Below are positions 2,397 to 64,000 of a stretch of 64,000 nt of DNA, piece by piece. Origin of the DNA: Naegleria gruberi (lineage: Eukaryota); assembly GCA_000004985.1 (NCBI GenBank), contig GG738847.1; one strand, written 5' to 3'. Position 1 is the stretch's first letter; each line of letters opens with the position of its first letter. The notes under the pieces were generated by a model. That model ran no database searches. It was not told the DNA's origin and saw only the letters and a list, made by a program, of their open reading frames with translations. The position numbers were made by a program, and so were the translations under genes.

Positions 2397-2559
2397 CTTA
2401 ATTCTTTTTAACAAACAGCTATACTTCTTTAACATCAATATATTAGCTTAATCATTACCATCACCACTCTCCAACAACAATTCTCCACCAAATAAAAATT
2501 AAAGCCCAAATGAAATTATTCCGGTAATGATTGGCCTTTTTCGAGAATGAATATTCGCG

Positions 2560-4260
2560 ATGAATCTCCAATACAAAAAAAATATCTGTTATCCTCACAG
2601 CACAGGAGAGATGGTCAATGAAAAACAAACGGATAATCATCACGATTCCGAAAAAGATCACAAGCTTATTTATCAGCACCATCATCACGTAGCATTTAAT
2701 ATTAATCCTCCTACTGAAGATGAGAAGAATAATCAAGCCAATTCCACTACAATAGATGATCATTCATCAGAGAATAATTTATTACCCAAGATGTTATTAT
2801 TGCAACACAATCATCATCATCTTCACCATCACTTGGAAGAACACATGAGCACTGATGCTACTGATGTTACCTCTACTGATGATTTCACAGAGAGTACTGT
2901 CAATGGACATTCTCATGATGAGAGTGCTCAAGATGTTGCCATGCACAGGATTGAACAAGTTGCTGAACGTTTTGCAAATGTCACAAAAAAGAAGAGTAAG
3001 AAGGCTCTTAAATTACTGACAGAGAGTCCTTTCAATATTTTCAAAGAGATTATGGATGAAGAGGAGGAACAATCCTCTGGTGAGGAAGATTTGGAAAATA
3101 ACATACCAAAAACTGTTTCTCACTCGAGAACACAATCCATAGAATCACTTCCAAAAGAAGAAATAATTGAGGAAAATGGTGTAACAATTAATCAAACTAT
3201 TCCGAATGCTGTTGGTGACAGCAAGGAACAAAACCCTGAATCGAAGGCATTGGATGAATCCACTCACTTGGTTCAAGACACTGAATTCACTCCAAAGAAT
3301 ATTTATAATCAAGAAGATACAGGAAAGCCAATCAAATTCCACACCCACTTTTGTCTGTGCTCTTTTGATGAGACTCCTGATTTTTTGAGAAACAATCCAT
3401 TCATTAGAAATCACTATAGAAAATACTTTTCTTTCAAATTATGTCTCCAAAGTATCTTTAGATTACACAATGAAACTGTCAATATCTGGACACACATGCT
3501 TCCAATATTTGGATACGTTGCTCTCATATTCTATACCATTTACTTTATGGTTGCAGAGCATAATACTGGCTCATTCAGTGCACAAAACGTTTTGGACATG
3601 ATCATTGTTATCATTTATCTTGGATTTGCAATTAATTGCTTTTTCTGTTCATCAATGTATCACACCCTTAACTGTCACTCAAAGAAAATTTGGGGTATTT
3701 CGTACAGATGTGATGTGAGTGCCATTTCTGGACTTATTGGAAGTAGCATCATTCCAGCTCTGTACTTTAACTTGTATTGTTATGTTGGTTGGCAAATAGT
3801 TTACATTTCATCAATTGGTTTGTTTGCAGTTGTTGGAATGATTTTCCCATGCCTGCCATTCAAGAGTCCGCGTGCTCTCAAAATTTTTGGTATTGTGAGA
3901 ACTGTTTTATTCATTTCTATGGTTTTGAGTGCTATTATTCCAATTTCACACTTTTTACTTTTCATTCTTCCATTGAAACAAGAGTATACAGGTAGTTTCT
4001 ATTCGGATTACAATCAAGATTTCATGATTGGAATTATCATTGTGGTTTCATTGTATGGTCTTGGATTAGTTTTCTGGCTCACCAAATTCCCTGAAAGAGC
4101 CTTCCCTGGCAAATTTGACTTGTTCTTTTCATCACACAATATTTGGCATGCTTTCATTGTTGCTGCCAGCTCCTTATGGTATTATTATTGTCTGACTCTG
4201 TATGTTGTCAAGGTTGAAAAACTGAAACTTGGCCTCTCTTGTCCAAGTGATGCATTTTAA
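2560..4260 (+). CDS. PAQR/haemolysin-III family 7-TM protein with long His-rich N-terminal extension (Izh3-like)
   Basis: The C-terminal half carries PAQR signature motifs (HNETVNIWTHMLP; SSMYHTLNCHS; SSHNIWHAFIVAAS) and about 7 hydrophobic helices. The roughly 300-aa N-terminal extension with HHHH runs resembles S. cerevisiae Izh3 architecture. Confidence 0.75.
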   Translation: MNLQYKKNICYPHSTGEMVNEKQTDNHHDSEKDHKLIYQHHHHVAFNINPPTEDEKNNQANSTTIDDHSSENNLLPKMLLLQHNHHHLHHHLEEHMSTDATDVTSTDDFTESTVNGHSHDESAQDVAMHRIEQVAERFANVTKKKSKKALKLLTESPFNIFKEIMDEEEEQSSGEEDLENNIPKTVSHSRTQSIESLPKEEIIEENGVTINQTIPNAVGDSKEQNPESKALDESTHLVQDTEFTPKNIYNQEDTGKPIKFHTHFCLCSFDETPDFLRNNPFIRNHYRKYFSFKLCLQSIFRLHNETVNIWTHMLPIFGYVALIFYTIYFMVAEHNTGSFSAQNVLDMIIVIIYLGFAINCFFCSSMYHTLNCHSKKIWGISYRCDVSAISGLIGSSIIPALYFNLYCYVGWQIVYISSIGLFAVVGMIFPCLPFKSPRALKIFGIVRTVLFISMVLSAIIPISHFLLFILPLKQEYTGSFYSDYNQDFMIGIIIVVSLYGLGLVFWLTKFPERAFPGKFDLFFSSHNIWHAFIVAASSLWYYYCLTLYVVKVEKLKLGLSCPSDAF

Positions 4261-4308
4261 TAAGGCAAAAAGAAATACTAACGAACTAATGTAAATAGTT
4301 AAAATAAT

Positions 4309-7300: not shown

Positions 7301-8417
7301 TGCAAATTTGCAACCTTTTCAGCATAAATACCTGCATATTCTGTTGCTGACAAGACTTCTCCTGTATCGTCATTAATATCGAAATGTAAATAGAACTCGT
7401 ATTTCTCTACCAAATCAAAAAACTTTGAAGACTGTGCGCCTGTTCTTAAAAACAATCTACAATGCTCCAAAACATGAGCATCTAACAAGTATAGACGTGA
7501 AAATTTTCTTGTTGGTATTTGAGAAAGTAAATCTATTAAAAATTCTAAAAATCTTTCACAGTATGTCATTAATTCATTATTATCACCTTCTACCAAACTC
7601 TTGAGAGATTCTAAAAAGTGAGTGACAAGAGATGGAACAAAGTTTGACTTGGAATCAGAATTGTTTTTCTTTGCAGAAAATTTTTTCCAATATTTTGTTA
7701 ATCCTCTCTTTGCTATTTCATTGTTTCTTCTAGAAGGATTAACATGAGTCCACAAAGGTAGTGACACATAATCCAAACACAATCTATTTATCAAATCAAT
7801 ATGAGAGAAACAATTAATCAGAAATACGATTAATATCAGTCTTTCCTTTGTATTCCTATATTCCAAATTAATTGCCAAATTATGTAATTGTTCGAATTTA
7901 CTATCAGTAGCAATATCCTTGAAATTAGTTTGATGACATTTTTCATTAATCATTACTATTAAAGATAATATAAATTCTCTAGAGTTTTTTCCATTATCAA
8001 AATTATTCCACAATACACTATTCATGTGTTAATCAATTCATTTCCTAAGAAAACTTACTGTTCAAAATAATTCGATGAAAATAATTGTGCAAATACTCCG
8101 CTAGATTCATTCAACAAATCCATACAAATAACATCAAATACTTGATTAATTAATTGTTCATCAAGAGCAATACACTTTTCCCATCGGGTTGATAAAACTC
8201 TAATTTGTTCATCATTGGCTTGATCCACCTTCATTTTCTTACTAGAGGCCTCTGAAGATCCTTCTTCCACAGTTGTTTGTTGATGATCATCACCATTCAT
8301 ACCATCACCATTATCAGGTAACACATTTTCCTCTGGATTTTTTCTCTTCATTTTTTTAATGCTGGAAAACAAGGTAAGAATAATGTGCTTGCTTGAAGGT
8401 GAATTGTTTTTCTTCAT
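4309..8417 (-). CDS. AQR: intron-binding protein Aquarius / Cwf11-family SF1-helicase-like spliceosomal protein; two exons (8417..8059 and 8017..4309), about 1355 aa
   Basis: The 1238-aa ORF aligns with human AQR (YCERFLEFLIDLL..PTRKF; LGIQYLSLFDYLLRNYELFKLEKTYSLRQSLEN vs [33 protein letters not shown]; Walker A region APPGCGKHNVLTKIIENIY vs GPPGTGKTDVAVQIISNIY). The upstream 120-aa ORF (8055..8417) supplies the conserved N-terminus (QLFSSNYFE / HVLWNNF vs human LEFSQYLENYLWMNY) once a 41-nt GTAAGT...AG intron is removed in frame. Confidence 0.8.
8018..8058 (-). other. spliceosomal intron (41 nt) of the Aquarius-like gene
   Basis: Minus-sense GTAAGTTTTCTTAGGAAATGAATTGATTAACACATGAATAG. The 5' site is GTAAGT, GATTAAC is the branch-like element, and the 3' site is AG. 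The splice joins CA|T into a His codon, restoring one frame and a conserved alignment. Confidence 0.65.
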
Positions 8418-8552
8418 GTATTATCATCATTAGTGTTTATTATTATTTACAATTTTAATTATTATTATTATTCTAATAGGTTGAGAGGAAGTAAAACCAC
8501 ACGTTTTTCTTCTTCATAATAAATTATATAATGGCCATCATCCTGGTGTGAA

Positions 8553-9371
8553 TTAATCATCTAATCCCATCTTATCCAGCAAGGCATCCAAGTCTGGTGT
8601 TGGGGAGAGTAGGCAATTGTCAGCATTTCCATTGTTGTTATTACGTTTCAATGGTGAAGTAAAACATGAGAAATCATCTTCATCAGAGGAATTTGTTGTT
8701 CTCTTCTCAACAACCTTTTCAGCATCCAATTTAACAGATAAACTATTGTTGGAGGCTCCTAGTACGGTGGATGCTACTGAATTCCACATGACATTATCAG
8801 AGGAGGTCCTTTCTGCCAATTCATCATACTGGTGCTTGAGTTTGTTGTATCTTTCCTTGGCAAACATCTTTTGTTCATGCATTTCTCTCACCTTCTCTTC
8901 TAATTGTTTAATGTATTCATCTTTGAGGTCATTGTCTCTTTGCAAGTCTTTAATTCTTTCCTTTTGTTGAAAGAGGAGGAGGGAAATGTCCTTGACAGCG
9001 TTGGCAGAGGTGTTTGAAGATGATTCTGGTGACAAATCTTGCAAATGCATGGTATGCTCAACTTGGTATGGAGAGGAAATTTCATGTTGTTTTGGTGTGG
9101 TTGTTTCAGGTGTTGGAGGTGAGTCTGGAATGTGAGGTTTAGTAGTGATAGAATACCATGAAAACCAGTTCAACCACGAATTGGATCTATTGTGTCTAGT
9201 TGGTGTTTCCTTCTTTGGAGTTACTTGTTCTTCAGATTCTGTTTCACTATCTGAATCATCGGAAGGAGCCAATAATTGAAGACGTTTCTGAAGGAGAGTA
9301 GAGTTTGAAACAACGTTATTCTTGTTGGATTCCTCTTCGGCAAGAGTTTTAACTGATTGGACAAGTGACAT
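8553..9371 (-). CDS. hypothetical Ser/Thr/Pro-rich protein with central coiled-coil segment
   Basis: 272-aa ORF with a heptad-like KDLQRDNDLKDEYIKQLEEKVREMHEQKMFAKERYNKLKHQYDELAER region. No family recognised. Confidence 0.45.
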   Translation of the reverse strand: MSLVQSVKTLAEEESNKNNVVSNSTLLQKRLQLLAPSDDSDSETESEEQVTPKKETPTRHNRSNSWLNWFSWYSITTKPHIPDSPPTPETTTPKQHEISSPYQVEHTMHLQDLSPESSSNTSANAVKDISLLLFQQKERIKDLQRDNDLKDEYIKQLEEKVREMHEQKMFAKERYNKLKHQYDELAERTSSDNVMWNSVASTVLGASNNSLSVKLDAEKVVEKRTTNSSDEDDFSCFTSPLKRNNNNGNADNCLLSPTPDLDALLDKMGLDD

Positions 9372-9437
9372 TTTTTTTAAATTTTAAATGTAACGGTAAG
9401 TTTATCAACTTTTGGTGGTTAAATTGCATTCCATGAA

Positions 9438-10367
9438 TTACTCCACAGATACATCAGAAAATACTGGTCCATCTGAATCATCGTCTCCACTGTAGTAATC
9501 GGAATTTCTTCTCATTATCTCAGCAAAATCTTGTAATCCCATTCTTCCTCCAGCAGATGCGTTCATTCTACCCAAATTCATGAATGGATTATTTGCAGCG
9601 TTTCCTCCCATAAAACTATTCATGAAAATGCTTGGGTCAATATTTGGTTGAGCTCCATTTGAGCCAGGCGTTCCAGAAGCTTGATTGAACATTGAATCAA
9701 ATGAAAAGAATGAAGAGAAATAACCAGACAATCCTAAATTCCAAGAACGGTCAATAGCAGTAAAAACTCCTTTCACAATTGTCCAATAGTCTTGAATTGA
9801 GGAGAATGGACCTCCAGGATTACTCGATTCCACATCAGATAATCCATGTTTACAATCTCTAAATACACGAATAATAATGAGTGTCACCAATAAATAATAA
9901 AACAAATTTTCAAAAAGAGTAGTCAATCCCAAATGCTTTCCTGTTGAAATAAAGTCATAAATGAAAAAGTATTCAAAAGGAACAATACTCAAAAGGAATG
10001 GGAATGAAAAGGATGTTGTGAAATAATTCTTCATCCACAATGCGAAATATCCCAAAGTAAAAACATTAAACCAATCCAACATTGAGTAGGGTTTTGCGTA
10101 ATCCTCCATTGTTAGCTGCAAACTATGTTCTGGCATTCTAACTAAATTATCAAAAAAGGGTTTGTGCACAAGATGAATTCTTCGGAACAGAGTTGTATCA
10201 TCACCGAATTCTTCTCCCAAGTAATCATGATTTTTAAACCATCCCAAGTAGATACTCGATATTAACAAGGCTGCACACACTCGAATTATACTACTCTTTC
10301 TAGATAACATTGAATTTACATTATTCACAGCAGAGAGTACTGAAAATACTCGATTGATTGTTGCCAT
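9438..10367 (-). CDS. hypothetical multi-pass membrane protein with Gly/Asn/Met-rich acidic C-terminal tail
   Basis: 309-aa ORF with several hydrophobic helices (LLISSIYLGWF; FTLGYFALWM; FPFLLSIVPFEYFFIYDFI; LFYYLLVTLIIIRVF). Family not recognised. Confidence 0.5.
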   Translation of the reverse strand: MATINRVFSVLSAVNNVNSMLSRKSSIIRVCAALLISSIYLGWFKNHDYLGEEFGDDTTLFRRIHLVHKPFFDNLVRMPEHSLQLTMEDYAKPYSMLDWFNVFTLGYFALWMKNYFTTSFSFPFLLSIVPFEYFFIYDFISTGKHLGLTTLFENLFYYLLVTLIIIRVFRDCKHGLSDVESSNPGGPFSSIQDYWTIVKGVFTAIDRSWNLGLSGYFSSFFSFDSMFNQASGTPGSNGAQPNIDPSIFMNSFMGGNAANNPFMNLGRMNASAGGRMGLQDFAEIMRRNSDYYSGDDDSDGPVFSDVSVE

Positions 10368-10663
10368 TAATTTTGATGAGAATTATTCCAAAATTATTGA
10401 TGAATAGAGAGTGGATGACGATATTTTTTATGAGAGTTCTTTTGTATGGAAAGAATCTTTCCTTTACAATTATTTTGCAACAATGATATCTTACTACACA
10501 AAGAATAATGAAATTTCACAATAATGATCTAATTGTCATTGTTGTTTTTGAAAATGTTTAAAATATCACCTTCACAGTTGAAGTACTCAACTTGAAATTG
10601 GCGCAAAGATTACTGTAAAAAACTAGCGGTTTCTCATTTTACATTAATAAAAAACTGAAAAAA

Positions 10664-13569
10664 ATGAGCCTTAATAATTTTGATGAGGCTTTACTTTCCT
10701 CCTCCGAAGAGGAAAGAATGTTGATGGAGAATGGAGAGGATGATTTAGATGTTCCAAAGGAATTATCGATCGATAATATCAGAGGGATGAAAGCTAGTAT
10801 TGAGAAGAATGTTAAAGACCTTGAGGAAGCTCTTGCGGAAGTAACCACATCAAACGAAGAACCAAATCATGAATTGATCAACGAGTTGAATTTAGCCTTA
10901 GTGCAAAGTAACTTGCTCCTGGAAAAAATAGTAATCATTGAAGATGGATACAAAAAGGCTATCAAAACCGATACTCTTCTCTCACAGGAAATAACTGATC
11001 TTGCCGAACAACTAGGCTTTATTGTACCTCTACACTTAACAAAGACAATAGAAGAAATTTCGGAAAGCGTATCACCCAATACACATCTCAACAATGAAGA
11101 AGAAGAAAATGGCTTAGAAGTTAGGGAGGGTGATTACAAGTTTGTTTCATTCGATGAGTTGGAGAAGTATTTGAACGAGCCGTTACTGCCAGAAGATAGG
11201 AATCAAACTCCAAAAGATAACACTCCCCAAAGGGCAGCAGTTTCAAGTACTTCCACACCAAGTACCAATATAGTCCCAATGCAATCACCAAAAATCACTA
11301 AATCATCACCACCACAATCTTCACAACATTCACCAGCAGATTCTTTAGAAGGTGAACCTGTAACACCAATTACATCAAGAGAAAAGGAATTAAGAAAGGA
11401 ATATTTGAAGAACAGTATTAATATGAGTAAGGTTTCCTTCTCCTCCCCAACCTCAACAGCATCAATCTTTTCCACACCAGCTGTTGAGAGGAGTGACAGG
11501 AAAAATTTAGAGGGAGATGAGTATATTGAGATTACACCAATTGTGGAGGAGGAAAATCCAACTCTAACTGAGGAACAGCAACAATTGATTGAAGAACAGG
11601 ATGTTAACAACCTGTTGGAGCAACTAATGATTTACACAAACGGATTGGATGAAGCAAAGAACTCACCTCGAAATAGACCACTTGGTGATTTGATAAAGGA
11701 TATCAAGGAAGAAGAAGGCACTCCTCAGGAGAACATCTCTTCTCCTAGCATCTTTTTGAGACAAGAAGGAAATGCATCCCCTCATTACACTAGAATTACA
11801 CCTAGAGAAACACCAAGAGAACTCCCAAAAGAAATACAAAGAGAACTTCAAAAGGAAGTTGTCAGAGAAATACCAAGAGAAACTCAAAGAGTGGTCGAGA
11901 GTCCACCTAAACTTTCTGCAACCAATTTGGAAAACGAATTCATGAAGAGAGATTTGGAAGATGCAAAGAGTCAAATAAGCGTATTGAAACAGCAAGTTGA
12001 ATTCCTTCAATCCAAGGTGGCTTCAACGGAAGCTGAAAATTCGGATCTTAAAATGACAATTGAAACTCTATACGAAGCAAAGAATCAGTTCGATGCTGAT
12101 ATGCAATCTATCAAAGAAAAAGAGTAAGTTTATCTGGGTTTACAGTTCACTAACTTTTTCATTTCAAAAGAGAAAAGATTAATTTAATTGCCTCTTCTTT
12201 AGGAGACCATATTGAATTTTTGCAAGGAATGGTTGATAAACTGAAAAATGAAAGAGACAATAAGGTAATCAAACAATCAGAACAATTAACAACCATAATA
12301 GAAACACTCATAAGAAAAGAAAACACTCTTCTCGAAACAGTAGTAAACCAAATGGAAAGTGAAATGAATAATAGAAAAGTAGTGTTGGACGAAGAAATGT
12401 TAAAACTTAAAAAGATTGTTGTTGAGTGTCTGGGCGATGAAGACGAAAGTTCTTCCAAAGAAATTAGCAATGAAACTCTTCATGCTCTTCAATCTGAACT
12501 TCAGACAGTTGCTGATGAACTGAGTGAAATCAACTACTTCCCTTCTGACCCTGATGATGATATCGATAATGCTGTGACCAGAACTTTGGAGTCTCTCGAG
12601 TGCCCTGTAACAATAGAGATTGAAAGAATTGGGTATGGAGAATATTACCTTGACAGAAAATTGTATATCAAACTTGGACCTAAGGGAGAACCTCTTGTAA
12701 AGAATGGAAATGGTTTTATCACATTAACATCGTACGTGAAGAGATTGTATGCTCCTTTCTTCACAACTGAAAAGTATATCAAAGAAGAAGAGCAATTAGA
12801 AATAGAGTCACAAGCTCTTCAATCATCCAAATTTGAATCTCTTCTCCAAAAACTTTCCAAGACCAGGGATTACATTAATAACTTACAAACAACCTCAAGA
12901 TCTGGATCTAACTCACCTCCAGCTTCACCTCCAAGAAGATCATCCCCTCTCAGAAACAATACTACTCTAAATCTTTCTCAATTAAATAACAGCAATGAGA
13001 GCCCTAAAGACTCCTCTTCAAAACTCAGCCCAAGAGATGGACCAAAGTTGATTCAAAAGAAAGAGAGGCAAGAGGATGACAACAAGGAAGGAAGACCAAG
13101 CTCTGCTCCTCCAAATACTAGGTACATTAATATTCTCCAAAGAGCAGAAAAGAATAAGAAGCTTTTGCCAATCAAGCCAACCCCACAAGTAAGAAGACCA
13201 CCTCCAAACAGCATGACCTTTGATAGAAGAAATAGTCCACTTCCACCAAATTATGTCATGCATAACAACAACCTCCTTTTTGTAAAACAACCAGCAACCT
13301 ATGAAAAACAACTCTCAAACTATGAGCAAGTTTTGGCTGCTCACCAATCTGTCAAGAAACCAATTGTTCCTCAAAAGTCTGCCTCAACAAATAACAGTAG
13401 AGCATCTTCACCAAGAAATCATCCATCACAGCAGCAACAACAGCCACAAACCATCAAGTCAACAATGTTTGGTTCTATTGATTTGGGTGATCCAAAGCAA
13501 TTGGAAAAATTGAAGAAACAAGCCCTAAGAATGCAAATCCAACAATTTAGTCAAAAACCAATTCATTAA
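10664..13569 (+). CDS. large coiled-coil / Ser-Pro-rich protein; two exons (10664..12123 and 12171..13569), about 950 aa
   Basis: ORFs 10664..12127 and 12220..13569 join in frame after removal of a 47-nt GTAAGT...CACTAAC...AG intron; the second ORF's frame is already open from 12154. The product has coiled-coil N-terminal and central regions, PRE(T/L)P(K/R)E-type short repeats and an S/P/N-rich C-terminus. Confidence 0.6.
12124..12170 (+). other. spliceosomal intron (47 nt)
   Basis: GTAAGTTTATCTGGGTTTACAGTTCACTAACTTTTTCATTTCAAAAG. The 5' site GTAAGT is at 12124, the branch-like CACTAAC at 12148-12154 and the 3' AG at 12169-12170. Exon 1 ends in phase 2 (GA) and exon 2 supplies A, giving GAA, then continues in the frame of the downstream ORF. 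Confidence 0.65.
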
Positions 13570-13576
13570 AATTCAT

Positions 13577-14076
13577 TTATTTCATATGTTCATCCATCAA
13601 TTGTCTAATGTCCTTCAATTCATTATGTAAAATTCTAAACTTGTCAGCAGACATTTCAAATCTTTCGTGAGTTGTAATTGATCCATCCTCTTCAGAGTGA
13701 AGAATTTTCAAGTTGAGTTGAACTGTTGGTTCATTCATTGTTTTTAAGGTTGATGATGATAAGACTAAATCTACTCTCCATTTTAATTCCTCAATTTTAG
13801 GCACTGTTAATATTTGGTAAGTTGCATGATAAAATCCAACCACTTACATCTCAAAGTTTTAGTTTTAAAATGCTGTATCAGTTTTTCCTTATAATTTTTA
13901 TATGATCTACACAAAGATTCACTGCTTTCTTTTGGTAAACCGATTTGTTGCAATTCGAGTGACAATTGTTGTTCTTCAACATTGAATCTGGCAGAATTAG
14001 AAATAATATATAAAATAGAAGCAATAGCACTCTTGACTTCCTTAATATCTTTACAAGATCCTTCAGTTCTCTTCAA
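13577..14076 (-). CDS. COMM domain-containing protein; two exons (14076..13848 and 13803..13577), about 151 aa
   Basis: The C-terminal ORF encodes a COMM-domain-like sequence (EELKWRVDLVLSSSTLKTMNEPTVQLNLKIL....FEMSADKFRILHNELKDIRQLMDE). The two overlapping minus-strand ORFs are joined by a 44-nt GTAAGT...TATTAACAG intron; the junction codon is T|TG = Leu. Confidence 0.6.
13804..13847 (-). other. spliceosomal intron (44 nt) of the COMM-domain gene
   Basis: Minus-sense GTAAGTGGTTGGATTTTATCATGCAACTTACCAAATATTAACAG. The splice is phase 1 and puts the conserved W-R-V-D COMM motif in frame. Confidence 0.6.
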
Positions 14077-14672
14077 TGCTTTATCATACTATTCCACAAT
14101 CAACAAAATAATTTCGGAAATTAATACATACATCAAATTCTTCTGATTCAATAATTTCCTTCATTACAGCAATTGATAAGAATTTCAATTGAACTGATGA
14201 CTAATAAAAATCCAATTTAATATTCCAATTTAACTGTAAAAACCTACAATATTTGCTAAAATAGCCATATTGGCCAAAAGCCAATCAGGGGCATCCAAAC
14301 CTCCACAAAAGTGAAATCTCTAAGATCGGAATTAATTCTCTCATCAATATTATTTCCAAAGATCAAAACATACCATCCTTCTTTAAATAATTTAATATGG
14401 TACACAAAAGATTTTTTCAACTATCCACACAGTGATGATGGCAAGATTTTAAATCTATTCGTTTTTTTTAAAAAAGAATTATTGAATTTTTAATAATATT
14501 CATAAAATATGAATCATAGCCAAGATACAAGTCAATCCATCGGATCTGATGACAATTACACTATTCACCATCATGGTGGTCATTAACTCTTTCCTATCAT
14601 CACATCATTAGCTATTTCTTAGTTGAAGCACAAAATTTGAAATTTATTGCTTTAAAAAAATATTTTAGAAAA

Positions 14673-15470
14673 ATGTTGCGTGCTGCTCTCACTTCTTCAA
14701 CAAAGGCCCGTCTTTGTTCAAAGAATGTTATTCATTCCTCTCAATTAGTATCATCATCAATTTCCTATACATTCATGAAGAGTTCTAATAACTCTCTTTT
14801 GCTCACGCTGCCATCTAAACAAATAAGGTTCTACGCCGAAGCACAAAGAGAAAAATCACCAAAGAGTAAACATGGAAAGGAATCAAGCTTTAAACGTTTG
14901 TGTAAGTATTAAAATTGTAGCGGAATATGTGATTGTAACAATTTTACCTTCATCACACACATTGGAATTGTCAAAATTATTTCAAATTAATTTTCATACT
15001 ATTATTTACTATCTTTAACAACAACAGCCCACGAGGAATGTGTTCAAGTTTATGACTTTTGGAAGAGCCAAGGAAAACAAATTAATTTTACATTCTATAG
15101 ACAATTCTTGCAACATTGTAATACACTCTGTTGGGACCACCCACAATATGTTGAAAAGGCCCTCTCAATTGCTGAAGACATGAAAAAGGACGGTATTGCT
15201 TGGAATCTTGAAGTTTACTTTATTTTGATCCAATGTTGCATCCGTAGTAAATCACCACAAAATTTAGACAAGGCTTTTGCTCTCCAATCTGAAATGGAAA
15301 AGTCTGGTATTCAATCAACTCAACTTATCTACAATTCACTCATTCGTGGTTGTGCTCTTTTGGATCAAGTGGAAAGAGCCAAGCCAGTTTTTACTGAAAT
15401 GATGAAGTTAAAGGATATTCCACAAGGAATCAAATTTGATGATGTCTATAAGCATCTTAAGGAATTGTAA
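14673..15470 (+). CDS. small mitochondrial PPR-repeat protein; two exons (14673..14901 and 15028..15470), about 223 aa
   Basis: Exon 1 begins with a presequence-like MLRAALTSSTKARLCSK. Exon 2 carries PPR-like 35-aa repeats (QLIYNSLIRGCALLDQVERAKPVFTEM). A 126-nt intron (GTAAGT at 14902, CAG at 15025-15027) joins the ORFs in frame, with junction codon T|CC = Ser. Confidence 0.55.
14902..15027 (+). other. spliceosomal intron (126 nt)
   Basis: Starts GTAAGTATTAAAATTG and ends ..TTTACTATCTTTAACAACAACAG, with a TTTAAC branch-like element. The intron is phase 1 and the downstream frame is open from 15030. Confidence 0.55.
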
Positions 15471-15723
15471 ATTGGAATATTTGACAACCAGTATAACTCC
15501 TACTCTAAATTTTTCAAACTAGAAAATGATAAAAAAACTTTATTTAAATTCAATTTATTGGCTATTATCAATTCTTCCCTTAATTGTTGGAAATTTAAAA
15601 TAAAATTCAATCAATTTTAGTAATTTTTAACCTCTCACTTTAGAAAGTCGTTTTTTTATGTTTATTTATTCAAATTGAAAATTAGGTAACAAATCCTCCT
15701 CGAAATATTTAATTTTCTAATAA

Positions 15724-16233
15724 TTATATGTTTTGCGATGATGCAAGTTTAGAAGTTTCTTCGTTCAAAATACTTTGGATGAGCAATTCATCTTCATGAA
15801 CGTTATTGCTCATTATCGTTTGAGATGTAATAGTCTTAGATTCGAGTGTAGCATTATTTTGTGGTGTAAGAAGCATATCTTCTCCTTGGTACATATCCTC
15901 ATGAATTGTTTGTTCTTCGTAAACTTGTCTGAATTGATCCTTTTGTTTGTAGCAAGCCCAACGGAATATTTGTTGGTCCTTTCTCATTTGTTCATTGAGT
16001 TCTTTAACACAAGTTGGTGAGGCATCGAACAACATCATGACCCATCTTCCCTTGAAATGTTTTTCTCTGTGTCTATACATCGGATAGGCAAGAGGTAAAA
16101 TACCCATATTATCAAGACGACGGATTACTCCCTTATTTTCAAAAACAACTTGAGCATTTCTCTTCATGACTTGGGCGACTGTTGGTAGAGCAGCCTTTGG
16201 ATTCACGAGGTACACCAATTCGTACAATGGCAT
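15724..16233 (-). CDS. MRP17: mitochondrial ribosomal protein bS6m (Mrp17-like)
   Basis: The N-terminus (MPLYELVYLVNP...) and central block (EKHFKGRWVMMLFDASP) resemble the bS6/Mrp17 family (yeast MLYELIGLV... HFRAYHFLMLFDSS). Confidence 0.6.
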   Translation of the reverse strand: MPLYELVYLVNPKAALPTVAQVMKRNAQVVFENKGVIRRLDNMGILPLAYPMYRHREKHFKGRWVMMLFDASPTCVKELNEQMRKDQQIFRWACYKQKDQFRQVYEEQTIHEDMYQGEDMLLTPQNNATLESKTITSQTIMSNNVHEDELLIQSILNEETSKLASSQNI

Positions 16234-16456
16234 GATGTTGTTGGTGATGATGATGAAATATTTTTTTGAATTTAGAAAATAAATAAAAATAAATCATTTT
16301 AAATTAAATTTCAGGCTTCTCTAATAACCTTTCAAATATTAGAAATGAATGACCAAGAAGATGACTGTTTACTTGTTGAAATGAAGTACTTAACATGCTT
16401 ACCGCGGACGAGGATATAAATATTTAAGTAAGTTATTTTAGAAATCTTAATGTAAA

Positions 16457-16527
16457 TCGGGTGTGGTATAGTGGTAGCATTCCAGACTGTCACTCTGGCG
16501 ACCCGGGTTCAATTCCCGGCACTCGAG
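16457..16527 (+). tRNA. tRNA-Asp (anticodon GTC)
   Basis: Folds as a cloverleaf. Acceptor TCGGGTG/CACTCGA with U1:A72 and a G4:U wobble, anticodon stem CCAGA/TCTGG, loop CTGTCAC (U33, GTC, A37) and T-arm CCGGGTTCAATTCCCGG. Discriminator is G73 and CCA is not encoded. U1:A72 and G73 match known yeast tRNA-Asp features. Confidence 0.85.
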
Positions 16528-16532
16528 TAGAA

Positions 16533-16538
16533 TTTTTT
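16533..16538 (+). terminator. RNA polymerase III terminator (T6) 5 nt downstream of tRNA-Asp
   Basis: TTTTTT run immediately after the tRNA 3' end. Confidence 0.5.
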
Positions 16539-16743
16539 GTTAAACAATTCAATTATCATTATCATATTACTGGTTTTCATAATTTTGTAATAAACACTAG
16601 TTTATAGATATTTGTGTTTTTATTTTTGATTAAAATTGAGTATTACCTTTTTTAGAAGCCTCTGATTTCTCATGCCAAATGTTGCTCAATAAAAAATATG
16701 TGGTACTGAAAAAGTTTAGCACTGTTTTATAATTTTATTAAAT

Positions 16744-17982
16744 TTACAACAAGTTACAAATAATCAAGGAAATCAAAACAAGCAAGAAGCTAATCAATGA
16801 TTGAGAGCTAGCACCGCTAGTGGCAGCCAAATAATTTGAATTTTCACTAGAACCACTTGAAGGATCCCAAATTACATTTTCAACTCTTTCAGTCAATGAA
16901 ACCCAGAAACGAGCAACAACAGCATTGGAAGCTTCAGACTTATCCTTGATAAATTGTTCATCAGAATTCAAACTACCTTCAATATTTCTGAATGGAGTGT
17001 AAATTAACTTGCCACGAGTAACAACAGTTGGTGAACTAGAAGAATATTTGGAAATAAACTTTTGGAAACTGAAGAATGGTTTTGGAAGAATTGCTTGATT
17101 GCCATCTAATTGAGTATTCAAATCATTATCAAATTGAGAAACAGCTTGATCATCATTGGCATCATCTGGCTTTTCAACAGCTGATGATTCTCTTGTTCCA
17201 GAGCTTGGCTTTAAGGTTTCATTTTCACCTGATGATTTTTCACGTCTTGAACCACGGAATGCAACAATTGTACCCAAAGCAATCAATGAATTAGATTGAG
17301 AATATTGAATATTAGCCAATTCGAAAGAAACCTTCAATGAGGATGGATTCAATACTTGAACAACACCAGCACGAGAGGCAAACTTTGAGCTATCAATTTG
17401 AACAGTGGCAGTTGAAATGACAGCACTCATTCTAACAGTACAGAAATTGGTAATATTAGTTTCAACCAAAGCATGATAAATATATGAATTATCACTGTCG
17501 TTGAGAAGCTTCTTTGATAAATCAACAATCTTCCATGTTTGTTCACGTAAATTGTAAATCTTTACAACAGTGTCATTACCTGGTTGATAACCTTCAACTC
17601 CACTTGTCTCTTGATATTCAATAATTCTATCGACACCAAATGCAGATCCAACTACAATGGCCAACTCACGTTCAATCTTGGTAATTGGTGTGACAATCTT
17701 GATAGCAGTCTTGGCCTTCATGGCAATGAGTGGAAATCTTTCGAGTGAGGCCAGAAATTCCATCTCTGAGAAGGAACCAACAGCAGTGGCATTGAGTCTG
17801 TCCAATGTACACAAGGCCTTGCTGGTAAACTTGATGGTCTTTTCGTTTCTGTCGACTTCAATCTTTCTACGGCAGAATTTGTTGGTTGGGAAGAGTTTTG
17901 GTGTAATGTCGAAGGAGGTTGATTGAGCTGAGAGGAGAGTGGCCAAACAGCTGAGAATTACAATGAGGAATAAGAGTTTCAT
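16744..17982 (-). CDS. GPI-anchored secreted / cell-surface protein
   Basis: N-terminal signal peptide (MKLLFLIVILSCLATLLSAQS), a Ser/Asn-rich body with many N-X-S/T sites, and a C-terminal omega-like region (ATSGASSQS) followed by a hydrophobic tail (LISFLLVLISLIICNLL). Confidence 0.6.
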   Translation of the reverse strand: MKLLFLIVILSCLATLLSAQSTSFDITPKLFPTNKFCRRKIEVDRNEKTIKFTSKALCTLDRLNATAVGSFSEMEFLASLERFPLIAMKAKTAIKIVTPITKIERELAIVVGSAFGVDRIIEYQETSGVEGYQPGNDTVVKIYNLREQTWKIVDLSKKLLNDSDNSYIYHALVETNITNFCTVRMSAVISTATVQIDSSKFASRAGVVQVLNPSSLKVSFELANIQYSQSNSLIALGTIVAFRGSRREKSSGENETLKPSSGTRESSAVEKPDDANDDQAVSQFDNDLNTQLDGNQAILPKPFFSFQKFISKYSSSSPTVVTRGKLIYTPFRNIEGSLNSDEQFIKDKSEASNAVVARFWVSLTERVENVIWDPSSGSSENSNYLAATSGASSQSLISFLLVLISLIICNLL

Positions 17983-18249
17983 ATTGTTTTTTTTTGTTGT
18001 GGAATATTTGTTGTATTGCTGAACATTTTAAAGGATTGTAATGGAGGGCACCTGTCGTTTGTCAATGAGTGAGTTCATGTCATGAACAAGTTGGTTGTTC
18101 TGCAACGATGAACTGCATTGTTGAAACTGGAAGTTAGAATATTCAACACTTAGAGTTCGTGGAAGGAAGAAAGAGTTCACAAGTTTGTTATTTACAATGA
18201 TTACTGTAGTTGATTGACAGGTGTATTAATTTCTTTTGCTTTCTGAATC

Positions 18250-19269
18250 TTAGCACAACATGCATTTTTCCTTTTTGTTTAGAACTGGAGCTTTGATAAG
18301 TTTCGAATAGATAAACGTCTTGACAATCAAATCTTCCAATTCTTCCAGTCCAACAAACTCTCTTGAAGATGTTGTCACATAGCTCACAGCACCCATCCGC
18401 TGAGATAGTTTCTTTCCATACGAATCATACTTTTTACACAAATAACTATTCCAATATTTTCCCAAATGAAAATCTCCTGGTTTTGAATAATCACAAATAT
18501 CAGATTTTGTTCCAACGACCAATACTGATCTGTTGTAATCCAAAAATGGTTGAATTTCTGGAAGAAATCTATCAGAAAAATCCTTCAAACACTTATTCAT
18601 CATTACTGGATTTGATATTGAATAGCACATTATAAAAATGTGACACTTGGATGGTGTATCATAAGAATAAGGAGTGTCTACTAATTGTAAACAATAACCT
18701 TCAATCCTCTTAATATCACACGAATTATAGTAACGGGGAACAGAAAAACCCTCTTCCGAATCATTGTATCTTTCATACCTAAGGTGAAGATAGTAACACA
18801 GAGTGGTCTTTCCAATACCATGTGGCCCAATGAAGCAACATCGAATTGGCTCTGATTCTTTCAGTAAATTTGCATATTCCTCCAATTTGAAATTCTCACA
18901 AAATGTCTCAAAGTTTTCAATTTCTTCCGAATATGAACTCCAAGTGTTTTTGAGTTTTTTAATTTTCTTACATTCTTTCAATTTATATGTTCGATCGACC
19001 GATTCCTTGGTTTCTCTATAAATTTTCATTAGAATTTCTCTAATATTCGTACTTTCTGCACGGAGTTTAATGGGTTCTTCTCTATTGAGCAACTTGCCAT
19101 GAATCGAAAGTTGACAGTCGAGTTGTGTTATTCTTCCTCGCCACATCCAATCACTATTTAAAAGATTGAACCAAATGGTATTGACCAACATAAGTTGGAG
19201 ATGTTCGGAAAATGAAAGAAATTTATCAACGATCGTGATGGTATCCAGTGGCAAGAGATTTAATGACAT
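18250..19269 (-). CDS. F-box-like N-terminal domain fused to a divergent Rho-family (pseudo)GTPase domain, polybasic-CMLC C-terminus
   Basis: The N-terminus LNLLPLDTITIVDKFLSFSEHLQLMLVNTIWFNLL fits the F-box consensus (LPxEIL..I...L....L.....V.K.W..L). Residues 140 onward align with Rho: P-loop GPHGIGKTT; effector FSVPRYYNS; Rho-type IFIMCYSISNPVMMNKCL..F...LPEIQPF; VLVVGTKSDI. Switch II is DTPYSYD instead of DTAGQE (A59P, G60Y, Q61S) and NKxD is TKSD. Ends KKEKCMLC. Confidence 0.6.
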   Translation of the reverse strand: MSLNLLPLDTITIVDKFLSFSEHLQLMLVNTIWFNLLNSDWMWRGRITQLDCQLSIHGKLLNREEPIKLRAESTNIREILMKIYRETKESVDRTYKLKECKKIKKLKNTWSSYSEEIENFETFCENFKLEEYANLLKESEPIRCCFIGPHGIGKTTLCYYLHLRYERYNDSEEGFSVPRYYNSCDIKRIEGYCLQLVDTPYSYDTPSKCHIFIMCYSISNPVMMNKCLKDFSDRFLPEIQPFLDYNRSVLVVGTKSDICDYSKPGDFHLGKYWNSYLCKKYDSYGKKLSQRMGAVSYVTTSSREFVGLEELEDLIVKTFIYSKLIKAPVLNKKEKCMLC

Positions 19270-19302
19270 TTTTTGATATTATTGAAGAAAATAAAGATGG
19301 TT

Positions 19303-19345
19303 AAAAAACAGTCCGATGAGACGGAATCGAACCGCCGACCACAGG
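19303..19345 (-). pseudogene. tRNA 3'-half fragment (T-arm plus 3' acceptor strand) followed by a T-run; no matching 5' half
   Basis: Minus-sense ...GGTCGGCGGTTCGATTCCGTCTCATCGGACTGTTTTTT. A canonical T-arm (GGCGG/TTCGATT/CCGTC), a 7-nt 3' acceptor strand and a T6 terminator are present. No complementary 5' acceptor strand, D-arm or anticodon stem lies within 100 nt upstream, and a 50-N gap starts about 125 bp away. Confidence 0.35.
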
Positions 19346-19471
19346 ATGACAGTTGTTCTTGCTACAGTCCACTTTTATTGTCAAGAAATCTGTAGGTAGA
19401 GAAGGAAGCCAGGTAAAAAAATAATGAAATGGAATAACAAGAACCCTTCAAAATATGCAACAAACACAATA

Positions 19472-19521
19472 NNNNNNNNNNNNNNNNNNNNNNNNNNNNN
19501 NNNNNNNNNNNNNNNNNNNNN
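19472..19521. other. assembly gap (50 N)
   Basis: Run of N. Confidence 1.
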
Positions 19522-19662
19522 GACAGTAAAATCCTGTACATTACAATGAAAAATAATTAACTTCTGACCCCTCTTCATTGTTCCTTGAAATTCAACTTGA
19601 TATTGAACTTTAACACTTGACAATATCAACTTCCAACTTCCCAAGCAAGCTCTACAAAAAAA

Positions 19663-20265
19663 ATGTCTCAAAACCTTCTCACGGCTGCCACTACCATGAA
19701 CAATCACGAAGAAGAGCTTGAAGTTCCAGGCTTTTCATGGATTATAGAATCGGAATTGGCTGGTATGAAATTTCCATCCCTTCCCGAACATTACAAAAAT
19801 TTAAATCATCATCACATTGGTTTGGTGATTTGTGTGAATGAGAGGGTAGCTTCCTTTGTTGAACAATTACCTCATTCAGAATATTTTAATTTAATTTCTA
19901 AAAAATTACAAAAAATAGAAAATTGTGAAGAATTTACTTATAATGTTGGAAAATTGAATATTGCTCATTTTCCTATTAATGATTATGGAGTTCCTAATAT
20001 GGAATTAATGAATGAAATGATAAAATTGGTAGAATATGTGAGAAAGGTGGATTCGAACAGGGGAATTGTTGTGCATTGCATGGCTGGACTTTCTAGGACT
20101 GGAATGATTCTGGCATGTTTGTTGGTGAGAGTATGGAAAATGACATTTGAGGAGTCAATCAAGTTGGTCAATCAGAAGAGAGGAAGAAATGGTAGAGGAG
20201 TAATGACTAGCAAGCAAGAAGCATTTGTGGAAGATTTTTCAAAGACTATTCCTAATATTCAATAA
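19663..20265 (+). CDS. dual-specificity protein phosphatase, DUSP23/VHZ-like
   Basis: CX5R active site VHCMAGLSRTGMILACLLV, plus N-terminal PGFSWIIESELAGMKFPSLPEHYKNL matching DUSP23 (PGFSWALPGRLAGLALPRLPAHYQFL). 200 aa. Confidence 0.75.
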   Translation: MSQNLLTAATTMNNHEEELEVPGFSWIIESELAGMKFPSLPEHYKNLNHHHIGLVICVNERVASFVEQLPHSEYFNLISKKLQKIENCEEFTYNVGKLNIAHFPINDYGVPNMELMNEMIKLVEYVRKVDSNRGIVVHCMAGLSRTGMILACLLVRVWKMTFEESIKLVNQKRGRNGRGVMTSKQEAFVEDFSKTIPNIQ

Positions 20266-60636: not shown

Positions 60637-60652
60637 AATCTACTAGTAGTTA

Positions 60653-61000
60653 ATGGAACCTTCAGACAATTTCACAATTTCAATTGCATTCAATGCATCC
60701 AAAGAACAATCAATGCATGAGGAAAGAGCAGTCAAAGCTTGTGTAGATTTGAGCTCAAGGTTGGCAGACTTACAAAAAAACAAATGGAATCAGATGGCCA
60801 ATAGTCACTCTTTGAATACTTGTCAGTTTAGGTTAGCTATTTATGTTCAACAATGTTTGTGTGGAAATGTGGGGACTAATGATAAAAGATTGTTCAAAAT
60901 TTTAGAAAATCTAAATATTTTGCTAGTAAGGTTGCTCGATTCTCTTTCCATACAAGATTTGTTTCATTTATTAATCTTCAAAATGATAATAATACTGTGA
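60653..61000 (+). CDS. hypothetical 115-aa ORF immediately after the gap (may be a gene fragment)
   Basis: ATG at 60653 is preceded by in-frame stops (tag tag). Hydrophobic C-terminus. No family recognised. Confidence 0.25.
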   Translation: MEPSDNFTISIAFNASKEQSMHEERAVKACVDLSSRLADLQKNKWNQMANSHSLNTCQFRLAIYVQQCLCGNVGTNDKRLFKILENLNILLVRLLDSLSIQDLFHLLIFKMIIIL

Positions 61001-61044
61001 AAAATAGAAAAGTGTTTGAAATAGGAGCAAAAATTAAAGTGTCT

Positions 61045-61900
61045 CTATGAATTAGCAAATAAATCAATTAGATTGTGGAATGGCTTTACAATTTTAAATG
61101 AAGAGAATACACCAAGAAGAACTCCCATCACAACAATAACAATAGATGATGCCAGAGCTGCAATGATAGCAATAATCATGGTTCCTAGATAGTTCCATTG
61201 AGGAACTGAAAATACAAATAACCTGTCAAGAAGCAGTGTCATTGGGAAAATAAGGAATCATCATACTTACCAATTTACATTAGCAGAATTACATAACCTG
61301 TACATTAAAAAATCTGTCCCCGAAAGATAAAAACTTGAATGAATCGCAGCTAAGTGAGTCCAACTTGCTTTGATACCTCGTATATATAAAGTTACCAACA
61401 GTTTCTACTTCTAAAACACCAAAATTTGTTGCCTTCTTACGCTCTTGATTTCCCTTATCATCCCACTTGGCTACAGGAACTTCAGGATAACTAGAGGCCA
61501 CGATAAACTCAGTTTCAATTTCAATGACAAAGGCAAGTGAACCAGTTATTTAACTTGTGATTTCCTTCAGATAGCTACTAATTGTAGCCACAGAAATATC
61601 AAAACCAAAATACCAATCAAAGTTGAATCCTGTGGCCGTTTGATTTCTAGATGGTCTTGAATTGACCAAACTCATAAAGGTAATGGAAGGAAGTGTTGGG
61701 TCAGTGTAGGAGAGCGTAAAAGTTGGTTTGTTCACTTGGTCCGATGCCACTCCTAGAATGTAACTCATATCAAATGGTGGTAACTGTACATCTGGTTCCC
61801 TAGATTGTGTATGACAATATTCATACAATGTCATATTATCACAATAGGTCCAAAACTGACCTGTTGAATTCACAAACAATATGCTTGGAATTCTCACCAT
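61045..61900 (-). pseudogene. claudin-like (Fig1/Sur7-type) membrane protein gene interrupted by an in-frame TAA and a frame change; pseudogene, draft-sequence error, or unresolved introns
   Basis: Three consecutive minus-strand ORFs. ORF 61550..61900 and ORF 61289..61501 are in the same frame, separated only by TAA at 61550-61552 (...KEITS*ITGSLAFVIEIETEFIVASSYPEV...). ORF 61045..61242 continues in another frame after a T6 run and encodes a C-terminal TM helix. The first ORF has the claudin/Fig1-type motif G-Q-F-W-T-Y-C-x8-C. Confidence 0.4.
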
Positions 61901-62614
61901 TCATCATCTTTCCCTTATTTCCTTCGTATGGATCTCCAACATACGAATCTATCATTAAAGTGGAGAGGAATTGGTATTAAGATTTGAAAATCTTGTAGGT
62001 GATCGGGTTAATCCAATCAGTGTTCGCATAATCCAAGTCCCACTAAAAGTTTACATCCTTTTAAATCATACTTGGGTTTTCGGGAGATTTTACCAACATT
62101 CAATATAAAATAAAAAATAAATACAGACACTTAGATTTGAGAATCCAAATTATATATTTTATCTTGAGATAATCTCTTATTTGTTATTCCAAGAGATGAT
62201 CCTCGCCAAAAACTACACATTAATATTGCGAGTCCCAAAGCATGACATTTGACAGTTGCTGAGGGATGTGTTTGACTTGTATACGTGAACATCATTCTAT
62301 ATTACCTTATAATATTAAGCGTTGGTTCATGTATTGCTCTCTTTATCACTAAATAAAAAGTTGAATGATGTATAGACAACTTTCGTGTAAAAACTTGTTC
62401 TCCAGACATGCTCATCTCCTAAATGAAAAGATAAAAATCTTTGAACAAAGTGCGCCAGGTTTCGAGATGAAAAAGTTGTCAATATTTCATTATTCTGTTA
62501 TCTCTAATGATGGCAGGTTTTGGGATAACAATTTCAAGGATTAGGAAATTGAGTGTGTTTGCATAGAATCACAATACATCAACAAGCAAAGTTCTTTTAG
62601 TTGCAGCAAACATT

Positions 62615-64000
62615 TTAATTCAATTTTCTTACAATTAAGGGCCAACCAACTTGTATCACTGTATACTTATGAATGCTTTTTGATTTGTCAGCATCATTTT
62701 CATATTGAGCATATTGTTTGACTTGAGAAATTGCAGAATTCAAAATTGATCTGGCTACAACTTTCTCTTTGGCATGAGTAAGTACTTCCATTTCTAATAA
62801 TTCTTCATCAGTTTGTTTAGATAAATCTTTAAATATATTTTTAAAAATTTGCGGATTCCAATATTCAATATTGGAATATTTTGTTAAAGAATTTGGTCTA
62901 ATATGTTTGAATTCAATTATTAATACTTTTTTAGAAGTTCTTATCACAAGATCAGCACGTTTGATGTATTCCTTATTGTTAGAATTCTTTACATGATATT
63001 CCTTTTCAGCTTGAATTTTCAATTCTTTGTTTCTAAATAAACAATATGCTCTTAATGCAGATTCAATACTTGCTTGTAAACCTCCTTCAGACATTGAATT
63101 GTCATAAATAGTTTCTTGTTTTTCTAAAATATTATTGAGTAACATTCTCAAATTATCTTGGGTAGGTTCATTAATAAAAGTTGATACATCTTTTTCATGT
63201 AGAGATATAAGTCTACGTAACTGCTCTAAATATTGGACTTTTGCAATTTCATTTGGAATTAACAATTGTTTTGGGTTCATCTGTTTTGATGATTCTTTTG
63301 TGAAGGTAACCATACCGTGATAATACATGAATGATAAAGCATTATCACGAATCTTTTGTATATCTTCTTCATTGGATGGTGGATCAATAATCTCTCTTAA
63401 TTTCAGTGAAGGATAAATTGACTCTGTTACTTCTACATAATCTTTTGAAAGTAATTGTTGAATAATATCATTCGATACAACTGATGATGCCAAAGTTGCA
63501 AAAACGTTCTCACTGATCATTGTGTTGGTATCTGTTAATATTGATAATGGAATTTCTTGTTTTTGTAGAACAGCATTTCTGAAAGGTTCATCTTTTACAA
63601 GTTTGTTCAAAAAGAACATTGAAAGAGTTGTGTTGAATAGAGCATGTTTTGAACCAGGAAAATGATAACCTTTATAATACTTTTTCATGGTTGAAATGGT
63701 AATATCTTGATCATTTCCAATAATATCAATGTTATTTAATGCCATTCTCAAATCATTTTCTGTAAAACCAACCAAACCACCAAATATCTTATCAGAGGAA
63801 ATATTACTGGAAACATTATATCCAGATGCATCAGCAAGAGCAATAGGAGTGATACCAGTGATGATACTACGAAAATCTTGTAAACCAGTAGCGGAAGACT
63901 CTTTCAATCTTTCAAAGAAAGAACGAATTGGTGAAGATGTTGGATCTCCTCTCTTTCCTTCAACTATTAATTGATATTTTTCAGGATTTTCAAACATTAA
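62615..64000 (-). CDS. partial (N-terminus lies beyond the window) AAA-ATPase-like / C-terminal PD-(D/E)XK nuclease-like (DUF1703 / PDDEXK_9-type) domain protein
   Basis: The C-terminal RADLVIRTSKKVLIIEFKHI.....AISQVKQYAQY...YTVIQVG matches the D..(I/L)(I/V)..ExK core and the A.eQIk.k.Y tail typical of the DUF1703 family. The frame is still open at the window edge (the codon before the first ATG is TTA). Confidence 0.5.
   Translation of the reverse strand, partial: LMFENPEKYQLIVEGKRGDPTSSPIRSFFERLKESSATGLQDFRSIITGITPIALADASGYNVSSNISSDKIFGGLVGFTENDLRMALNNIDIIGNDQDITISTMKKYYKGYHFPGSKHALFNTTLSMFFLNKLVKDEPFRNAVLQKQEIPLSILTDTNTMISENVFATLASSVVSNDIIQQLLSKDYVEVTESIYPSLKLREIIDPPSNEEDIQKIRDNALSFMYYHGMVTFTKESSKQMNPKQLLIPNEIAKVQYLEQLRRLISLHEKDVSTFINEPTQDNLRMLLNNILEKQETIYDNSMSEGGLQASIESALRAYCLFRNKELKIQAEKEYHVKNSNNKEYIKRADLVIRTSKKVLIIEFKHIRPNSLTKYSNIEYWNPQIFKNIFKDLSKQTDEELLEMEVLTHAKEKVVARSILNSAISQVKQYAQYENDADKSKSIHKYTVIQVGWPLIVRKLN

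Follow-up and report, generated by a model that had tools for sequence, protein, structure and literature searches.

The closest described relatives of the gene reported here are the DUF1703 proteins of Bacteria and a few Archaea, in which AAA+ domains 1 and 2 are followed by a helical linker and a C-terminal alpha-beta3-alpha-beta2 nuclease domain (PMC1913061). The AAA+ module of the family is defined by an atypical Walker A motif, R-P-R-R-F-G-K-S, and a D-E-Y-D Walker B motif (Knizewski et al., 2007, PMC1913061). In the literature consulted, PMC1913061 among the sources, DUF1703 is described as bacterial, mostly from Bacteroidetes, plus Methanospirillum, and eukaryotes are unmentioned. In our study, a stretch of 64,000 nucleotides of Naegleria gruberi (assembly GCA_000004985.1, contig GG738847.1), hereafter the window, was analysed for the gene at positions 62615-64000 of its minus strand. 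The open reading frame (ORF) at this position is a genuine nuclear gene of N. gruberi and was found to encode a AAA+ ATPase joined to a DUF1703-type PD-(D/E)XK nuclease domain. We consider it rather likely that the product is an ATP-gated DNA nuclease, probably mitochondrial, of an old and eukaryote-only DUF1703-type branch, and this is the best explanation that we can offer.

The Naegleria protein has the same four-part layout as the DUF1703 proteins, the same atypical Walker A pattern (R-P-x-R-x-G-K-S), the DEYD Walker B motif and the nuclease motifs I-IV (E, D, ExK, and Q). It differs from them in being eukaryotic and nuclear-encoded and in carrying an N-terminal leader of 77 residues (24-100 in the clade). 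Its Walker A motif reads RPPRWGKS and departs from RPRRFGKS by one R to P change plus F to W. The eukaryotic proteins contain an insertion after the ExK strand, with a sub-threshold score against the Pfam model PF08011, and are 640-800 residues long, whereas the DUF1703 proteins are about 570-600 residues. The identity of the Naegleria protein to the best prokaryotic members is only 27-35%.

Reading frame and domains of the Naegleria gene

The minus-strand frame ran without interruption from a TAA stop codon as far as position 64000, where the window ends. The codon at that edge (63998-64000) encodes Leu, so the ATG at 63997 is the internal Met246 and not the start. The 461 codons in the window correspond to residues 245-705 of NAEGRDRAFT_78045 (P0001; 705 residues, on a 941-kb scaffold), with 99% identity and six amino-acid differences. 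A 7.5-kb metagenome contig (L001), collinear with window positions 60637-64000, was found to hold the entire gene (protein P0002) as a single uninterrupted and intronless ORF of 2115 nucleotides, which places the start codon about 729 nucleotides past the window edge. An unbroken frame of 705 codons was shared by three independent N. gruberi-type sequences. Database entries already list the gene as a hypothetical 'AAA-ATPase-like domain-containing protein'; a literature search gave no match for the name NAEGRDRAFT_78045, and the product name retrieved whitefly papers only. The features of the gene in the window are as follows.

62615..64000, minus strand: 3' two-thirds of the gene, single exon; residues 245-705 of NAEGRDRAFT_78045 plus the TAA stop (62615-62617)
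63830..64000, minus strand: C-terminal end of the PF09820 domain, residues 245-301; contains invariant R288 and, in the place of sensor-1, the 'ITGITP' strand (G293)
63113..63829, minus strand: middle region, residues 302-540, mostly helical; AAA+ lid and ATPase-nuclease linker
62618..63112, minus strand: PD-(D/E)XK nuclease domain, residues 541-705; restriction-endonuclease-like, alpha-beta-beta-beta-(insert)-alpha-beta-beta topology
63086..63088, minus strand: motif I, E549, a metal-binding residue of the first core helix; invariant across an alignment of 16 sequences, and 41 of 46 eukaryote-type sequences carry E
62951..62953, minus strand: motif II, D594 ('RADLVI'); from conservation in alignments, codon checked
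62906..62914, minus strand: motif III, E607-F-K609 ('LIIEFK'; E607 at 62912-62914, K609 at 62906-62908); from alignments
62756..62899, minus strand: clade-specific helical insertion, residues 612-659 (48 residues), between the ExK strand and the Q..Y helix; seen as a gap in hhalign
62711..62725, minus strand: motif IV, Q670...Y674 ('SQVKQY'; Q670 at 62723-62725, Y674 at 62711-62713), in the second core helix; from alignments and hhalign

The Pfam model PF09820 (AAA-ATPase_like) matched residues 79-301 of the full-length protein P0001 with 142 bits (cutoff 26.1; E 2.4e-41), whereas the window fragment alone, which holds only residues 245-301 of this match, gave none. The Walker A (RPPRWGKS) and Walker B (DEYD, in LIDEYD) motifs were present in P0001 and L001 just upstream of the window edge; the preliminary description had expected that the ORF leaves the window with its ATPase part just beyond it, and this was borne out. 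Among 46 eukaryote-type sequences, the Walker A lysine and the Walker B aspartate were kept in all 46 and the Walker B glutamate in 45. Structurally, the nearest ATPases were those of BrxC (BREX), STAND/NLR/Avs and the ORC-like switch ATPases, and the N-terminal module is a switch-type AAA+ ATPase of the ORC/Cdc6, archaeal-ATPase and STAND neighbourhood. The identity to ORC/Cdc6, the PF01637-type ATPases (SSO1545, 2fna; PAB2304, 2qen), BrxC and STAND proteins was 7-14% with low TM-scores (0.19-0.46), and no sequence-level membership in these groups was detected. The Naegleria protein adds a nuclease domain which they lack, and it differs from them in its sensor-1 residue, a Gly as in DUF1703 (PMC1913061).

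In the nuclease domain, E549, D594, E607, Q670, and Y674 were invariant in the 16-sequence alignment, which covers eukaryotic and canonical prokaryote-type family members. The E-D-E-K-Q-Y set was largely kept in the 46 eukaryote-type sequences and is complete in the window protein. The D...E-F-K core and the SQVKQY tail, both quoted in the preliminary description, were found in RADLVIRTSKKVLIIEFK, which supplies D594, E607, and K609, and in SAISQVKQYAQY, which supplies Q670 and Y674, respectively. PF08011 scored 16.8 bits on the window fragment (gathering threshold 25.5; E 0.0068) and 16.0 bits on full-length P0001, and the match was limited to profile positions 57-101, the tail. A profile of the window C-terminal domain and its homologues, compared by hhalign with the C-terminal domain of 34 PF08011-bearing proteins, gave a probability of 97.6% (E 4e-12) over 117 columns, with the E, D, ExK and Q..Y motifs all in register and the gap facing the eukaryotic insertion. 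This insertion is missing from the canonical PF08011 proteins, and the predicted model places helices at residues 627-646. The PF08011 score stays below threshold because the helical insertion splits the domain.

The predicted model of the window sequence was confident and contained, in model numbering, a helix at 30-48, strands at 53-63, 69-79, and 83-92, the insert, a helix at 141-162 and strands at 167-176 and 180-185, which is the restriction-endonuclease-like core fold. Further sub-threshold PD-(D/E)XK matches of the window fragment were to SduA_C and NERD in Pfam; NCBIfam gave no match, and a phmmer search of the fragment against PDB sequences gave nothing relevant. The C-terminus was thus confirmed as a DUF1703-type PD-(D/E)XK nuclease domain, the profile-profile and fold evidence overriding the PF08011 shortfall. 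The architecture that had been proposed, a PF09820-type ATPase with a DUF1703-type nuclease, therefore holds, and of the two profile searches that had been suggested as a check, the one with PF09820 succeeded on the full-length protein whereas that with PF08011 failed. Compared with the nucleases of the Cas4/RecB family (SSO0001, Pcal Cas4, AddA, Dna2, and MGME1), BpuSI and CinB, the identity was 10-21% and the iron-sulphur cysteine motif is absent. The Naegleria core contains the helical insertion and is fused to a AAA+ switch, not to a helicase or methyltransferase.

A eukaryote-only branch of the family

The top tier of the profile search contained proteins of 600-800 residues carrying PF09820 only, followed by a lower tier of prokaryote-like PF09820+PF08011 proteins of about 570-600 residues. 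The named members of the top tier were from Naegleria, Willaertia, Balamuthia mandrillaris, Clydonella and Flabellula (Amoebozoa), Amoeboaphelidium (Holomycota, aphelid) and Pyropia (red alga), and MMETSP transcripts were also present. Homologues were found in N. fowleri, N. lovaniensis (three copies) and Willaertia magna; no Acanthamoeba homologue was found in a search with the Balamuthia protein. Two metagenome members lie in eukaryotic contexts, one beside ROCO kinase, SH3, PH and DEP genes and the other with Ras and Integrator-8 (INTS8). Another metagenome protein (P0151, 1428 residues) contains the ATPase-nuclease module (query residues 84-704) at residues 809-1427, behind an N-terminal fusion of 800 residues.

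A neighbour-joining (NJ) tree, a rough and distance-based one, was built from 123 sequences (33 eukaryote-type and 90 prokaryote-type) over 553 columns with 100 bootstraps. The 33 eukaryote-type sequences formed one bipartition in 100/100 bootstraps, with Heterolobosea monophyletic within it, and the sister of this clade was a mix of Desulfobacterota, Chromatiales-Thiotrichales and Chloroflexota. The shared RPP-R-(W/F)-GKS motif, the nuclease insertion and the greater length agree independently with the clade. When 185,579 genomes of prokaryotic species were scanned, 585 relatives were obtained, of which the best 80 were only 25-35% identical over residues 78-509 and were spread over Desulfobacterota, Chromatiales/Thiotrichales, Chloroflexota, Ignavibacteria, Bacteroidota and Clostridia. 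Of 1.84 billion cluster representatives searched exhaustively with phmmer, 6652 matched at E <= 1e-3, and only about 30 of these aligned end-to-end to this protein. By its sequence relationships, the gene falls within a monophyletic branch that is confined to eukaryotes, in a family that is otherwise prokaryotic, and its ancestry appears to be bacterial yet ancient, not a recent transfer into Naegleria. Two origins had been suggested earlier, and horizontal acquisition stands only in the sense of old bacterial ancestry; it fails as a recent event, given the distant prokaryotic relatives and the Naegleria and Willaertia orthologues. A little-studied eukaryotic nuclease family, the other suggestion, fits best with a eukaryote-only clade that spans several supergroups.

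The leader and the proposed function

The number of residues before the conserved 'FPYG..F' motif was 24-100 in the eukaryote-type proteins, whereas the prokaryote-type proteins contained 3-11. The leaders are not conserved in sequence and are alike in character: basic, rich in Ser/Thr and mostly free of acidic residues in the first 20-40 residues. The net charge was +4 to +8, and the first acidic residue was found at position 34 in P0001 and was absent in many homologues. Presequence-like examples are MLVRRVFAGHRFLSTTTRPVY, MLRRSAQRSAQHFAGAPRPPTT, and MLSVRRGAVVPRFARGAGFPRLMSTT, with the recurring patterns 'ML..RR...' and '..R.FSTT' (in Naegleria, ...IRSFSTT and ...IRKFSTT). No further Met is present ahead of Walker A in P0001, so the leader must be translated; the AlphaFold2 (AF2) model leaves residues 1-77 disordered. 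From this composition we infer that the leader is probably a mitochondrial import presequence and that the protein is probably imported into mitochondria. The DUF1703 family is unmentioned in the Andalucia mitochondrial-proteome paper.

In the mechanism that we propose, the AAA+ module, on binding or hydrolysing ATP, would control assembly on DNA, and this nucleotide-dependent assembly might license Mg2+-dependent DNA cleavage by the nuclease domain, by analogy with how ORC/Cdc6-, STAND- and BrxC-like ATPases and PD-(D/E)XK enzymes generally behave. The leader would direct the enzyme into mitochondria, and its substrate would therefore be mitochondrial DNA (mtDNA), with a role that may lie in mtDNA processing, recombination or repair, or in clearing damaged or foreign DNA. 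An analogy which rests on the inferred location is offered by human MGME1 (mitochondrial genome maintenance exonuclease 1); it is without an ATPase module, and sequence homology to it was not detectable. A fuller account is put forward tentatively, as a possibility rather than an expectation: an unrecognised DUF1703-type clade of ATP-gated PD-(D/E)XK nucleases may have been acquired from bacteria early in eukaryote evolution, and its members may be imported into mitochondria and act on organellar DNA as maintenance or defence factors, scattered over eukaryotic supergroups and patchily present in Heterolobosea, Amoebozoa, aphelids, red algae and other protists, with animals, fungi and plants lacking them.

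Several observations weigh against the proposed function. No DUF1703 member with demonstrated biochemical activity was found in the literature. Paralogues with degenerate nuclease sites exist: P0004 of Willaertia magna contains D-R-D-K-Q-C in place of the nuclease set together with an E to G change in Walker B, and P0008/P0027 of N. lovaniensis contain E-S-E-T-R-Q, so that some paralogues are probably catalytically dead, as judged from these sites. The window and L001 (3908-5293) differ in 12 codons, nine nonsynonymous and three synonymous, and these small counts give no sign of strong recent constraint; six of the nine nonsynonymous changes cluster at residues 275-292 (window 63857-63910). 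The hydrophobic moment (amphipathicity) of the leaders did not differ from that of shuffled sequences, which is uninformative either way, and a subclade (P0018, P0019, P0024, P0029, and P0030) carries acidic or hydrophobic leaders unlike presequences. Neither the id nor sequence fragments of NAEGRDRAFT_78045 gave a match in the searched part of the mitochondrial proteome table published for N. gruberi (PMC8134430, Supplementary Data 2), a weakly negative result. The eukaryote-type group of the tree was pre-selected by profile score.

Genomic setting, rival explanations and significance

The window is AT-rich (GC 0.30-0.36) and contains two runs of N, of 39,830 bases at 20807-60636 and of 50 bases at 19472-19521; a spurious 'ORF' of 13,307 residues was called across the longer one. 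The left 20 kb of the window contained eukaryotic genes, which are linked to the gene at 62615-64000 only across the N gap. The features identified in this left part are as follows.

443-1666: actin-family ORF
2560-4260: HlyIII/PAQR protein
4309-8025, minus strand: intron-binding spliceosomal helicase Aquarius
16457-16527, plus strand: tRNA-Asp (GTC), found by ARAGORN; the sole tRNA in the window
18250-19269, minus strand: Ras-like GTPase
19663-20265: dual-specificity phosphatase

Five more ORFs (270-490 residues) within 443-20265 gave no Pfam match. ORFs on either side of the gene (window 60653-61900; L001 1952-2401 and 6939-7379) resemble fragments of Naegleria-type adenylate/guanylate cyclases; this impression, gained by eye, is unconfirmed, and the flanking ORFs at window 60653-61900 had no Pfam match. 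One flanking ORF showed a weak, sub-threshold match to Peripla_BP_A-cyclase (E 2.4e-4), and a 2OG-Fe(II) oxygenase gene was found farther out in L001. About 90 nucleotides at window 61730-61819 have no counterpart in L001, and past this point the identity drops from 99.2% to 94.5%. P0001 and P0002 diverge strongly in residues 170-230 and are nearly identical elsewhere; the mosaic divergence among P0001, P0002 and the window is suggestive of exchange between alleles or strains, by recombination or by gene conversion. In Willaertia magna, the locus lies on a 474-kb contig and contains two tandem paralogues between RhoGAP/WW, RCC1-WD40 and BSD/TLD genes:

L002 5853-7868 and 8001-10046: Willaertia magna tandem paralogues

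A recent bacterial transfer into Naegleria, or a contaminant contig, is effectively refuted. Such an origin would suit an intronless gene from an overwhelmingly prokaryotic family that the literature calls bacterial, and the GC content at third codon positions (GC3) of the gene, 0.18, is below the 0.28-0.33 of eight other ORFs of the window. However, the gene matches an annotated gene of N. gruberi, carried by a scaffold of 941 kb, at 99% identity and has orthologues or paralogues in N. fowleri, N. lovaniensis and Willaertia, where the locus is flanked by eukaryotic genes. The prokaryotic relatives are distant and the eukaryotic clade was recovered in every bootstrap. The GC3 offset is reversed in Willaertia, where the paralogues have about 0.21 against 0.09-0.20 in their neighbours; with offsets of opposite sign, composition is not read as a foreign signal, and the comparison that the preliminary description had suggested for detecting foreign origin does not indicate one. 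The GC content of the orthologues (about 0.29) is alike across genomes of differing background composition, and 0.29 is typical of AT-rich Naegleria DNA, unlike the bacterial relatives. Contamination, raised earlier as a possible objection, is excluded by the eukaryotic flanking genes and by the orthologues in Naegleria species and Willaertia. We also regard it as very improbable that the gene is the cargo, or encodes the nuclease, of a mobile element inserted at the locus. The unconfirmed cyclase-like fragments on both sides in L001 and the tandem duplication in Willaertia could be read in this way, but no terminal inverted or direct repeats were found around the gene in the 7.5-kb contig, where the only matches were short, imperfect, AT-rich and at chance level. 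Neither tandem repeats nor a nearby transposase, integrase or reverse transcriptase (L001, Willaertia locus and flanking ORFs) were found, and the copy number is low in each genome.

The same ATPase-nuclease could instead act in the cytosol or nucleus as an innate-immunity-like effector, which would sense and cut foreign DNA (of giant viruses, endosymbionts or plasmids) in phagotrophic amoebae. We think this unlikely, with enough in its favour to be taken seriously. It would parallel the bacterial NTPase-nuclease defence proteins: the ATPase is nearest to BrxC, STAND/NLR/Avs and ORC-like ATPases, a review records PF09820 matches in RADAR RdrA, PARIS and Old-tin proteins, and the nuclease domain resembles CinB, Cas4 and Shedu SduA. 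The taxa are mostly bacterivorous amoebae, the protein occurs patchily, paralogues have expanded and active sites have decayed in some of them, and one subclade carries non-presequence leaders. Against this, the PADLOC-DB v2 defence models gave no match at E <= 0.01-0.1 for P0001, P0005, P0023, and P0041 or for the canonical P0063, P0081, P0090, and P0119; the only matches were at chance level, to DndE (window fragment, E 0.011) and to PDC-M62A and Cas11a (P0088, E 0.002-0.007). No partner genes or island-like context were visible around L001 and the Willaertia loci, and the leaders were gained specifically in the eukaryotic branch, with the composition of import presequences and no other evident role. 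A decaying or non-catalytic relic, either an ATPase scaffold with a dead nuclease or a gene drifting to a pseudogene, is improbable. The nonsynonymous differences and their clustering, the lost catalytic residues of the Willaertia and N. lovaniensis paralogues, the low GC3 and the protein's not being found in the searched part of the mitochondrial proteome table would agree with such decay, whereas the frame is intact in all three N. gruberi-type sequences, the window copy keeps the six nuclease residues and P0001 every residue of the ATPase motifs, the motif residues are conserved across supergroups, and the window sequence was modelled with confidence.

What is new in our study is the assignment of the unannotated C-terminus to the DUF1703-type nucleases, the eukaryote-only clade with its own insertion, and the import-like leader. 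The eukaryotic branch is missed by the Pfam model PF08011 because of the insertion in the domain. If the protein were cytosolic, it would exemplify how an NTPase-nuclease immune module of bacterial type has been retained in amoebae. For the mitochondrial ATP-gated nuclease that we favour, the import-like leader and the intact sites provide the first concrete cell-biological hypothesis for DUF1703. The protein would then be a candidate for the poorly known mtDNA-maintenance toolkit of free-living protists, relatives of the pathogens Naegleria fowleri and Balamuthia mandrillaris among them, and one with no human homologue.

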